Assembly (NCBI RefSeq): GCF_024502345.1
Contig: NZ_JALDNN010000001.1
Length of the DNA stretch: 64,000 nucleotides
Strand: one strand, 5' to 3'
From: Escherichia coli
GTDB lineage: Bacteria; Pseudomonadota; Gammaproteobacteria; Enterobacterales; Enterobacteriaceae
The translations under genes were made by a program, and so were the position numbers. Of the stretch, positions 54,482-56,822 are shown piece by piece. Within the stretch, counting starts at the first letter, position 1, and each line of letters opens with the position of its first letter. The notes beneath the pieces were generated by a model. The model made no database searches, was not told where the DNA came from, and was given only the letters and a program-made list of their open reading frames with translations.

Positions 54482-54943
54482 ATGAGTCAGGACAGTAAAG
54501 TTTTCTTTCGTATATTCTTCGGTATCGGTCTGGTACTGATCCTCATTTCTGTTGTTATCTTTTATAACCAGTTCACCTATAGCAAAGACGCGATTCATAC
54601 CGAAGGCGTCATTGTTGATACCGTCTTGCACTCCAGTCATTCTCATCGCACGGGTAAAAATGGTTCGTGGTATCCCGTCGTTGCCTTTCGACCGACGCCA
54701 GATTACACGCTAATTTTCAATTCGAGTATTGGCAGCGATTTTTATGAAGACAGCGAAGGCGATAAAGTTAATGTTTATTATTCTCCCGGGCATCCTGAAA
54801 AGGCTGAGATAAATAACCCGTGGGTTAATTTTTTTAAATGGGGGTTTATCGGCATTATGGGCGTTATTTTTATCGCCGTCGGTTTATTAATCAGTATGCC
54901 CTCCTCTAAAAAATCACGCAGGAAACGGAAGTCCCGTCCATGA
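54482..54943 (+). CDS. ymfA: Inner membrane protein YmfA
   Basis: 153 aa with N- and C-terminal TM segments; conserved position downstream of potD. Confidence 0.8.
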
Positions 54944-54990
54944 AAAAAATCATAATACTGCTCAGTTTACTGATACTTCTGCCTCTGACG

Positions 54991-56047
54991 GGCTTTGTTG
55001 AATAAATCGAACTTTTGCTGAGTTGAAGGATCAGATCACGTATCTTCCCGACAACGCAGACCGTTCCGTGGCAAAGCAAAAGTTCAAAATCACCAACTGG
55101 CCCACCTACAATAAAGCCCTCATCAACCGTGGCTCCATAACTTTCTGGCTGGATGATGAAGCTATTCAGGCCTGGTATGAGTCAGCAACACCTTCTTCAC
55201 GAGGCAGACCTCAGCGCTATTCTGACCTTGCCATCACGACTGTGCTGGTCATTAAACGCGTATTCAGGCTGACCCTGCGCGCTGCGCAGGGCTTTATTGA
55301 TTCCATTTTTTCTCTGATGAACGTTCCGCTACGCTGCCCGGATTACAGCTGTGTCAGCAGGCGGGCAAAGTCGGTTAATGTCAGTTTCAAAACGCCCACC
55401 CGGGGTGAAATCGCACACCTGGTAATTGATTCCACCGGGCTGAAGGTCTTCGGTGAAGGCGAGTGGAAAGTCAAAAAGCATGGCCAGGAACGCCGCCGTA
55501 TCTGGCGTAAGCTGCATCTCGCCGTTGACAGTAAAACACATGAAATCATCTGCGCTGACCTGTCGCTGAACAACGTTACGGACTCAGAGGCCTTCCCCGG
55601 GTTAATCCGGCAAACCCACCGGAAAATCAGGTCAGCCGCCGCCGATGGCGCTTACGATACCCGGCTATGTCACGATGAACTGCGGCGTAAGAAAATCAGC
55701 GCGCTTATCCCTCCCCGAAAAGGTGCGGGTTACTGGCCCGGTGAATATGCAGACCGTAACCGTGCAGTGGCTAATCAGCGAATGACCGGGAGTAATGCGC
55801 GGTGGAAATGGACAACAGATTACAACCGTCGCTCGATAGCGGAAACGGCGATGTACCGGGTAAAACAGCTGTTCGGGGGTTCACTGACACTGCGTGACTA
55901 CGATGGTCAGGTTGCAGAGGCTATGGCCCTGGTACGAGCGCTGAACAAAATGACGAAAGCAGGTATGCCTGAAAGCGTGCGTATTGCCTGAAAACACAAC
56001 CCGCTACGGGGGAGACTTACCCGAAATCTGATTTATTCAACAAAGCC
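54991..56047 (+). mobile_element. IS903-like insertion sequence, copy 2, 1057 bp, with perfect 9-bp target-site duplication
   Basis: Same terminal inverted repeats as copy 1; CCTCTGACG at 54982-54990 and again at 56048-56056. Confidence 0.92.
55068..55991 (+). CDS. IS903-type DDE transposase
   Basis: Translation identical to the copy at 37181-38104. Confidence 0.85.
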   Translation: MAKQKFKITNWPTYNKALINRGSITFWLDDEAIQAWYESATPSSRGRPQRYSDLAITTVLVIKRVFRLTLRAAQGFIDSIFSLMNVPLRCPDYSCVSRRAKSVNVSFKTPTRGEIAHLVIDSTGLKVFGEGEWKVKKHGQERRRIWRKLHLAVDSKTHEIICADLSLNNVTDSEAFPGLIRQTHRKIRSAAADGAYDTRLCHDELRRKKISALIPPRKGAGYWPGEYADRNRAVANQRMTGSNARWKWTTDYNRRSIAETAMYRVKQLFGGSLTLRDYDGQVAEAMALVRALNKMTKAGMPESVRIA

Positions 56048-56822
56048 CCTCTGACGGTAACCAGTAAGCCCTTAATCCCAATAATGAAGACACTTTTTAC
56101 GGATGTTACAGGTACTGTACCGGATGCTGAGGAGATTGCGCGGAAAGCGGAGCTTTTTCGTCAACAAACAGGGATTGCGCCGTTTATCGTGGTTGTACCT
56201 GGCGTTAATGAAGCAAGCTTCAGGCAAAATGGCAAAGCGATGCTGGCGCATGCGTCATCTTCATTGAGTGATGTAAAAGGAAGTGTTCTGTTACTTTTTA
56301 CTACACGCGAGCCACGGTTAATTATGATAACCAACGGCCATGTTGAAAGCAGCATGGACGATAAGCATCTCGGCCTTCTGGTAGAAAATCACACGCTGGC
56401 TTATTTACATGCGGATCTCTGGTATCAGGGAATCAATAATGCATTGGCTGTTTTACAAGCACAGATATTAAAACAACCGACGCCGCCACTGACATATTAT
56501 CCGCATCCCGGACAACAGCAGGAGAATGATCCTCCCGGCAGCACCACGACATTAGGCCTTTTTGCCTGGGCGGTTGCATTTATCGTCTTTACTGCATTTT
56601 TTAACTACACGACGCGCCTTAATTATGCATTAAAATTTGCAGTGGCGATGACTATTGCCAATATGGGCTATCAGGCTTTATGCCTGTATATCGATAATAG
56701 CTTTGCGATTACCAGAATATCGCCACTCTGGGCAGGGCTGATTGGTGTCTGTACGTTTATTGCCGCGTTGTTATTGACGAGTAAACGGTAAAAGAGATAG
56801 TAAAATGCGTGTGTATTATGCC

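Follow-up and report, generated by a model that had tools for sequence, protein, structure and literature searches.

In the 64,000-nucleotide stretch of Escherichia coli DNA analyzed here (contig NZ_JALDNN010000001.1 of assembly GCF_024502345.1; hereafter, the window), the chromosomal gene ycfZ, known as b1121 in E. coli and coding for an uncharacterized protein of the inner membrane, is interrupted by a copy of the insertion sequence (IS) IS903B. We are highly confident that the locus, taken as a whole, is best explained by a simple IS903B insertion that produced a probably near-neutral null allele of ycfZ. The element is 1057 bp long, carries 18-bp inverted repeats, and is flanked by a 9-bp duplication of CCTCTGACG; therefore, it was placed in ycfZ by a simple insertion catalyzed by a DDE transposase. 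Intramolecular replicative transposition would have deleted or inverted DNA rather than produced a direct second copy with a duplication of its own, which likewise leads to simple insertion as the origin of the ycfZ copy. The event is of an already-known kind, with a textbook mechanism, a known element, and a gene that is often lost.

Structure of the insertion

An earlier note on this DNA, made from the sequence alone, had described a perfect 9-bp duplication and a simple, precise insertion after codon 17 of ycfZ. Both descriptions were confirmed. The two copies of CCTCTGACG abut the IS termini exactly; they leave a 17-codon stub on the 5' side, and on the 3' side the frame resumes as PLT-VTSKPLIPIMKTLFTD... 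and runs to the stop codon at 56789-56791. The duplicated 9-mer corresponds to ycfZ codons 15-17 (PLT) and, on both strands of the 64-kb window, is restricted to 54982-54990 and 56048-56056, whereas two given 9-mers would match by chance with a probability of 4^-9 (~4e-6). The termini of the intervening segment, 54991-56047, are complementary at 18/18 bases. The terminal motif GGCTTTGTTGAATAAATC, the canonical IS903 terminus, occurs only four times in the window, always at an IS end, against 0.05 occurrences expected by chance.

Reconstruction of the empty site gave the same picture. In-silico removal of IS903B together with one 9-mer yields a 261-aa YcfZ open reading frame with a TPM domain (Pfam PF04536, score above the gathering cut-off). 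The reconstructed ymfA-ycfZ segment (1353 bp) aligns in one ungapped piece, at 99.9% identity, to E. coli 88-3493, several O169:H41 strains, and others, with 1-2 mismatches relative to these best-matching alleles. In these strains the genes are annotated as ymfA and 'TPM domain-containing protein', the intact ycfZ alleles have a single CCTCTGACG at the empty site, and in the public assembly collection the exact 261-aa protein appears in 1,395 blocks. The rejoined YcfZ also shows 89% full-length identity to the CP53 protein annotated as ycfZ. Because the halves rejoin and align to intact alleles as one piece, both belong to one gene, as the earlier note had proposed; comparison with uninterrupted alleles thus found identical 9-mers and two parts of a single gene, not unlike 9-mers or fragments of different genes. 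The gene order potD-ymfA-[ycfZ]-cobB-nagK-lolE, which places the locus downstream of potABCD, is that of annotated references. Nothing contradicts this structural reading.

The transposase places the element in the IS5 family. It contains the Pfam domains DDE_Tnp_1_5 (PF13737, E = 3e-40) and DDE_Tnp_1 (PF01609, E = 7e-33) and matches the NCBIfam IS5-family equivalog NF033579 with 357 bits, against a cut-off of 140. D121, D193, and E259 (307-aa numbering), the catalytic DDE triad of IS903, are all present, and the classical 307-aa product would start at GTG 55068. All 1057 bp are 100% identical to many chromosomal and plasmid copies annotated as 'IS5-like element IS903B family transposase', compared with 95.8% nucleotide identity, and 313/322 identical amino acids, to a copy annotated as IS903 ('IS903 family transposase', NZ_LR890193.1). 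Thus, the earlier note, which had called the element IS903, had the group right but not the isoform; the name IS903B follows the annotation of the matching copies by the Prokaryotic Genome Annotation Pipeline (PGAP). Related copies are common, with matches in 1,993 of the 5,426 complete E. coli genomes in RefSeq (up to 47 places per genome) and in at least 5,000 enterobacterial plasmids, mostly from Klebsiella. In the literature, IS903B is an element of 1057 bp whose insertion creates 9-bp direct repeats and inactivates mgrB, among other genes (PMC10513040).

In the mechanism that we propose, an active IS903B transposed by simple insertion into the chromosomal ycfZ of this strain. Its DDE transposase cut the two strands at CCTCTGACG with a stagger of 9 bp, and repair of the gaps then duplicated the 9-mer on both sides of the element. 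The gene is thereby split into the 17-codon stub and a 3' part deprived of its start codon, of translational coupling to ymfA, and of the N-terminal export/anchor segment. The donor may have been the identical IS903B 17 kb upstream, a copy on a sister chromosome, or a plasmid copy. Of the two identical copies in the window, one is a clean insertion and the other sits at a deletion, which points to an active IS903B in the source chromosome. The features of the locus are collected in Table 1.

Table 1. Coordinates in the window of the interrupted ycfZ locus, its neighbors, and the second IS903B copy
Feature	Position	Strand	Remarks
ymfA	54482..54943	+	intact, 153 aa, DUF3592 (Pfam PF12158); named ymfA in syntenic references
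ycfZ 5' fragment	54940..54990	+	codons 1-17
Left copy of 9-bp target-site duplication	54982..54990	.	CCTCTGACG
IS903B	54991..56047	+	1057 bp; IS5 family, IS903 group; transposase co-oriented with ycfZ
Left terminal inverted repeat	54991..55008	+	GGCTTTGTTGAATAAATC, 18 bp
Transposase open reading frame	55023..55991	+	322 aa from TTG 55023, per PGAP annotation
Right terminal inverted repeat	56030..56047	-	18 bp, perfect complement of left repeat
Right copy of 9-bp target-site duplication	56048..56056	.	CCTCTGACG
ycfZ 3' fragment	56057..56791	+	codons 18-261 and stop; TPM domain and two C-terminal hydrophobic helices
Longest residual open reading frame	56084..56791	+	235 aa from YcfZ Met27; deposited as WP_256632795.1 / MCQ7030946.1 (E. 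coli)
cobB	56928..57749	-	convergent with ycfZ; 136-bp spacer between
Second IS903B copy	37104..38160	+	0 differences in 1057 bp, same orientation, no target duplication

Consequences for ycfZ and cobB

Hydropathy analysis of YcfZ indicates a hydrophobic N-terminal segment (residues 1-21) and C-terminal helices at about residues 180-201 and 238-260, with the TPM domain at residues 41-151. The insertion point falls within the N-terminal segment and cuts it off from the TPM domain as well as from the membrane helices at the C-terminus. Upstream, the ycfZ start codon (ATG 54940) overlaps the ymfA stop codon as ATGA, and the 5' stub, read into IS903B, gives a 21-codon product that ends in ...PLTGFVE and a stop codon, four codons inside the element. 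Downstream, the ycfZ frame is open back to 55991; no ATG, GTG, or TTG occurs in this frame between the preceding stop and Met27 (ATG 56084), and no Shine-Dalgarno sequence lies upstream of that ATG (bases CCCTTAATCCCAATA). A consensus scan of 54400-57000, with a threshold of 9/12 matches, found no sigma-70-like promoter within the right IS end or spanning it, and the three promoter-like matches in the whole interval are not above the 3.4 expected from shuffled sequence. The scan of the same interval also found no terminator-like hairpin between the transposase stop at 55991 and the IS end.

Because the N-terminus is cut off, no start codon precedes Met27, no Shine-Dalgarno sequence is present, and no outward promoter was found, inactivation of ycfZ is likely. 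We conclude that this is almost certainly a null allele, a loss of function predicted here from the DNA. Transcripts that read through from the element are possible, yet efficient translation of the ycfZ remnant would not be expected, and any product initiated at Met27 would be predicted to lack the export/anchor segment. The earlier note had anticipated the inactivation, which the sequence supports well; it had also suggested that the outward-facing IS end might alter expression of the remnant or of cobB, an effect that finds no sequence support, as there is no consensus promoter at the right end. In this strain, the proper annotation of ycfZ is a pseudogene with an IS903B interruption, in place of the 235-aa 'TPM domain-containing protein' of WP_256632795.1.

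The convergent arrangement of cobB and ycfZ that the earlier note had reported is correct, and the spacer between them is the same as in strains with an empty site. To the eye, this spacer resembles a repetitive extragenic palindromic sequence. Inside the transposase gene, at 55273-55291 (+), there is a terminator-like element that consists of a GC-rich hairpin with an 8-bp stem, CCCTGCGCGCTGCGCAGGG, followed by a T-rich tract, CTTTATTGAT. This hairpin lies on the sense strand of the transposase gene and could attenuate read-through or transcription of the transposase.

Occurrence of the allele and variability of the locus

The occupied site was found in none of the 5,426 complete genomes, among them the 16 that match the ymfA-ycfZ allele of the window at 99% identity or better. 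Exact 30-mers spanning the left and right junctions were both without a match in the JGI metagenome collection. Sightings outside the window came only from a look-up of the exact 235-aa remnant, which retrieved, besides the NCBI record, two metagenome contigs from ENA, L005 (ERZ19695678) and L006 (ERZ19692831). The sequence of both contigs begins within the IS, and both have the same right junction as the window, in which the IS end is followed by CCTCTGACG and ycfZ. They match the window perfectly over the IS end and the entire ycfZ, and differ from it only at 8 and 3 clustered positions, respectively, in cobB and nagK; these differences could reflect mixed-strain assembly or real divergence. 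Because two metagenome assemblies, independent of each other, contain the right junction and an NCBI record contains the remnant, the ycfZ::IS903B allele is real, circulating, and rare, rather than a private mutation. This bears on the age of the insertion, which the earlier note had judged to be probably recent: absence from the complete genomes favors that view, whereas the junction in two metagenomes and the remnant in the NCBI record speak against it, so that recent origin is plausible but unproven. With 0/5,426 complete genomes and at least two metagenome samples positive, the junction can serve as a strain or lineage marker.

The ymfA-ycfZ pair varies considerably among E. coli strains, in which it is a presence/absence polymorphism. 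In ECNB21-M121, potD is followed directly by cobB; only the first ~44 nt of ymfA are kept, after which the sequence jumps to the spacer beyond ycfZ (L016:29187-29341). The same deletion junction is present in 575 of the 5,426 complete genomes (~10.6%), which agrees with the 577 genomes that have no ymfA-ycfZ match. Strain CUWW06 (L015, NZ_CP182139.1) has an IS1 in the same ycfZ allele, after about codon 95, together with an internal stop codon in ymfA. Because so many genomes carry the deletion, and because CUWW06 carries both the IS1 and the nonsense mutation, the ymfA-ycfZ pair is dispensable; since the pair has been lost repeatedly in E. coli, the insertion studied here is probably neutral or nearly so.

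Sequence divergence at the locus is also high. The ycfZ of the window is 89% identical to that of CP53 (L002:37171-37959) at both the nucleotide and the amino acid level, whereas potA-D, ymfA, phoQ, purB, icd, and pepT are 97.5-99.1% identical between the two strains, and relative to most E. coli genomes the ymfA-ycfZ segment reaches only 80-95% identity. The ycfZ dimorphism may reflect either diversifying selection or an old import by recombination. Neither YcfZ nor YmfA has a match in the PADLOC defence library, and YcfZ has neither an NCBIfam match nor a sequence relative in the PDB at E <= 1. Literature mentions of ycfZ are confined to its being a putative 'virulence-factor homologue' or a screen result; for example, it is among the genes mutated in phage-insensitive mutants of avian pathogenic E. 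coli (APEC), for which the authors do not establish causality (PMC12057083). The variability of ymfA-ycfZ offers a modest lead for the study of an uncharacterized envelope gene pair.

The second IS903B copy, competing explanations, and known systems

The second IS903B copy in the window has unmatched flanks, ACCTTAAGG versus ATCGTGCAC. Its left flank (36960-37103) ends 147 bp past minE, and its right flank (38161-38208) resumes 48 bp before ycgX; the element thus replaces the minE-ycgX interval, which spans about 12.4 kb in CP53 coordinates, a length to which IS903B and IS5 copies of CP53 itself contribute. The genes lost are ycgH, pdeG, ymgC-ariR-ymgA-ycgZ, bluF, and bluR, all intact in ECNB21-M121. 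Adjacent deletions are documented for IS903 (PMC11708052), and the loss fits either an IS-associated deletion of this kind or recombination between two former copies. The second copy is a possible donor or sibling of the one in ycfZ. Deletion of the bluF-bluR, ycgZ-ymgA-ariR, and pdeG block, which relates to biofilm and blue light, probably has more phenotypic consequence than the ycfZ insertion.

As identical 1057-bp direct repeats (37104-56047), the two IS903B copies bracket 16.8 kb of core genes, ycgX, icd, rluE, nudJ, mnmA, hflD, purB, phoPQ, roxA, pepT, potABCD, and ymfA. RecA-mediated recombination between the repeats could duplicate this block in tandem or delete it, although no sign of either is visible in the window. 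The region looks mosaic when its parts are compared with complete genomes: the left block (12200-37103) shares 99.5% identity with the IS903B-rich strains ECNB21-M121, JX21CE8, and 23CRST027/031; the best complete genome for the inter-IS block (38161-54990, 16.8 kb) reaches only 98.7%; and for ymfA-ycfZ (54482-56900) the matches at 99.9% are other strains, 88-3493 and O169:H41. No close sister genome with an empty site was found among the complete genomes. A scan of the whole window with Rfam found only the C0299 small RNA (RF00119, 111.9 bits) at 30511-30589 (-), which is unrelated to ycfZ.

A simple insertion has to be weighed against explanations in which no element moved into ycfZ by itself. 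The two copies could be the ends of a composite transposon, 37104-38160 plus 54991-56047, that moved the 16.8 kb between them, as two identical direct copies at that distance might suggest. We rejected this candidate, which is extremely unlikely, on the grounds of synteny and unmatched outer flanks: native E. coli gene order is preserved across the inner segment (ycgX, icd, purB, phoPQ, potABCD, ymfA) as well as outside the pair on either side; the outermost flanks, ACCTTAAGG and CCTCTGACG, differ; and the copy in ycfZ is bordered at each end by a duplication of its own. Misplacement of an IS903B repeat into ycfZ during assembly would be favored by the multi-copy nature of the element, with two identical copies in the window itself, and by the lack of a complete RefSeq genome with the occupied site. 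Such an error, though, would not set a perfect 9-bp duplication precisely at the ends of the IS; in addition, the truncated 235-aa product is found in an NCBI record from E. coli. Because the identical junction of IS end, 9-mer, and ycfZ is found in two independent metagenome assemblies, a one-off artefact is excluded, and we give any form of misassembly a negligible probability. Three observations do weigh against simple insertion into a gene that is thereby nullified. No public sequence other than the window showed the left junction. In principle, read-through transcripts could give rise to the 235-aa product that starts at Met27. Finally, the target gives no positive support. A table in PMC2577343, citing the primary study, lists for IS903 a 9-bp duplication and the target motif WTTYA-N9-TRAAW; the sequence in ycfZ, TTCTG-CCTCTGACG-GTAAC, matches this tabulated motif at 5/10 specified positions. 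Because ~24% of window positions score at least 5, the ycfZ site is not a preferred hotspot by this motif, although it is compatible with weak IS903 specificity.

Other explanations accept the insertion and differ on what it does. It could be regulatory, with an outward promoter at the right IS end, or read-through across it, driving the ycfZ remnant from Met27 or antisense transcription into cobB. The transposase gene is co-oriented with ycfZ, no terminator-like hairpin separates 55991 from the IS end, and the ycfZ frame is open back to that position, all of which would suit such a role. Yet the right end has no sigma-70-like promoter at the 9/12 threshold, no in-frame start precedes 56084, which has no Shine-Dalgarno sequence upstream, and the Met27 product would be without its N-terminal export/anchor segment; moreover, with the spacer unchanged, cobB is no more exposed than it is to an intact ycfZ transcribed from its own operon. 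A regulatory role is thus very unlikely. Alternatively, loss of ycfZ could be adaptive, if YcfZ, or YmfA and YcfZ together, were costly or exploited by a phage or host factor and the IS903B insertion were one of several routes to a null. Consistent with this idea, losses are repeated (the deletion in 575/5,426 genomes, IS1 plus nonsense in CUWW06, and IS903B here), the ycfZ alleles are 89% identical within flanking genes that are 98-99% identical, the gene is mutated in phage-insensitive APEC mutants, albeit without causality established by the authors (PMC12057083), and the ycfZ::IS903B allele recurs in more than one sample. Recurrent loss, however, is equally expected from neutral decay of a dispensable gene, neither protein has a PADLOC match, no phenotype is known, and the 575 deletion genomes share one junction and may represent one old event. 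We therefore regard adaptive loss as unlikely; the broader proposition, that ymfA-ycfZ is under recurrent selection for loss or diversification and that the insertion is an adaptive null, providing, for example, escape from a phage or host factor, is in our view quite improbable. A simple, probably near-neutral insertion remains our preferred explanation.

The locus itself offers two known points of comparison. The IS1 insertion in CUWW06 and the deletion between potD and cobB that ECNB21-M121 shares with 574 other genomes are independent cases of inactivation or loss at the same place. They differ from the IS903B case in that CUWW06 carries IS1 at another position, with a nonsense mutation in ymfA, while the ECNB21-M121 type is a clean 2.35-kb deletion. 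A functional parallel is the insertion of IS903B into mgrB of Klebsiella, which confers colistin resistance: there, too, the same element has knocked out a small chromosomal gene by simple insertion with 9-bp direct repeats, with donor copies that are often plasmid-borne (PMC10513040; PMC8796155). Inactivation of mgrB has a strong selected phenotype, in contrast to ycfZ, which is uncharacterized and dispensable, with no known selectable phenotype.

With respect to the element, IS903 proper, which flanks Tn903, shares length, termini, architecture, transposition chemistry, and the 9-bp duplication with the copy in ycfZ, and the motif WTTYA-N9-TRAAW, as tabulated, is that of IS903; the two differ in sequence, with only 95.8% of nucleotides and 313/322 amino acids identical. 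The IS903B copies of E. coli chromosomes and of plasmids from Klebsiella and other Enterobacteriaceae have the same length, 18-bp repeats, 9-bp duplication, and single DDE transposase. Relative to these annotated copies, the element described here is without any difference, and the insertion site alone is peculiar to the ycfZ allele.

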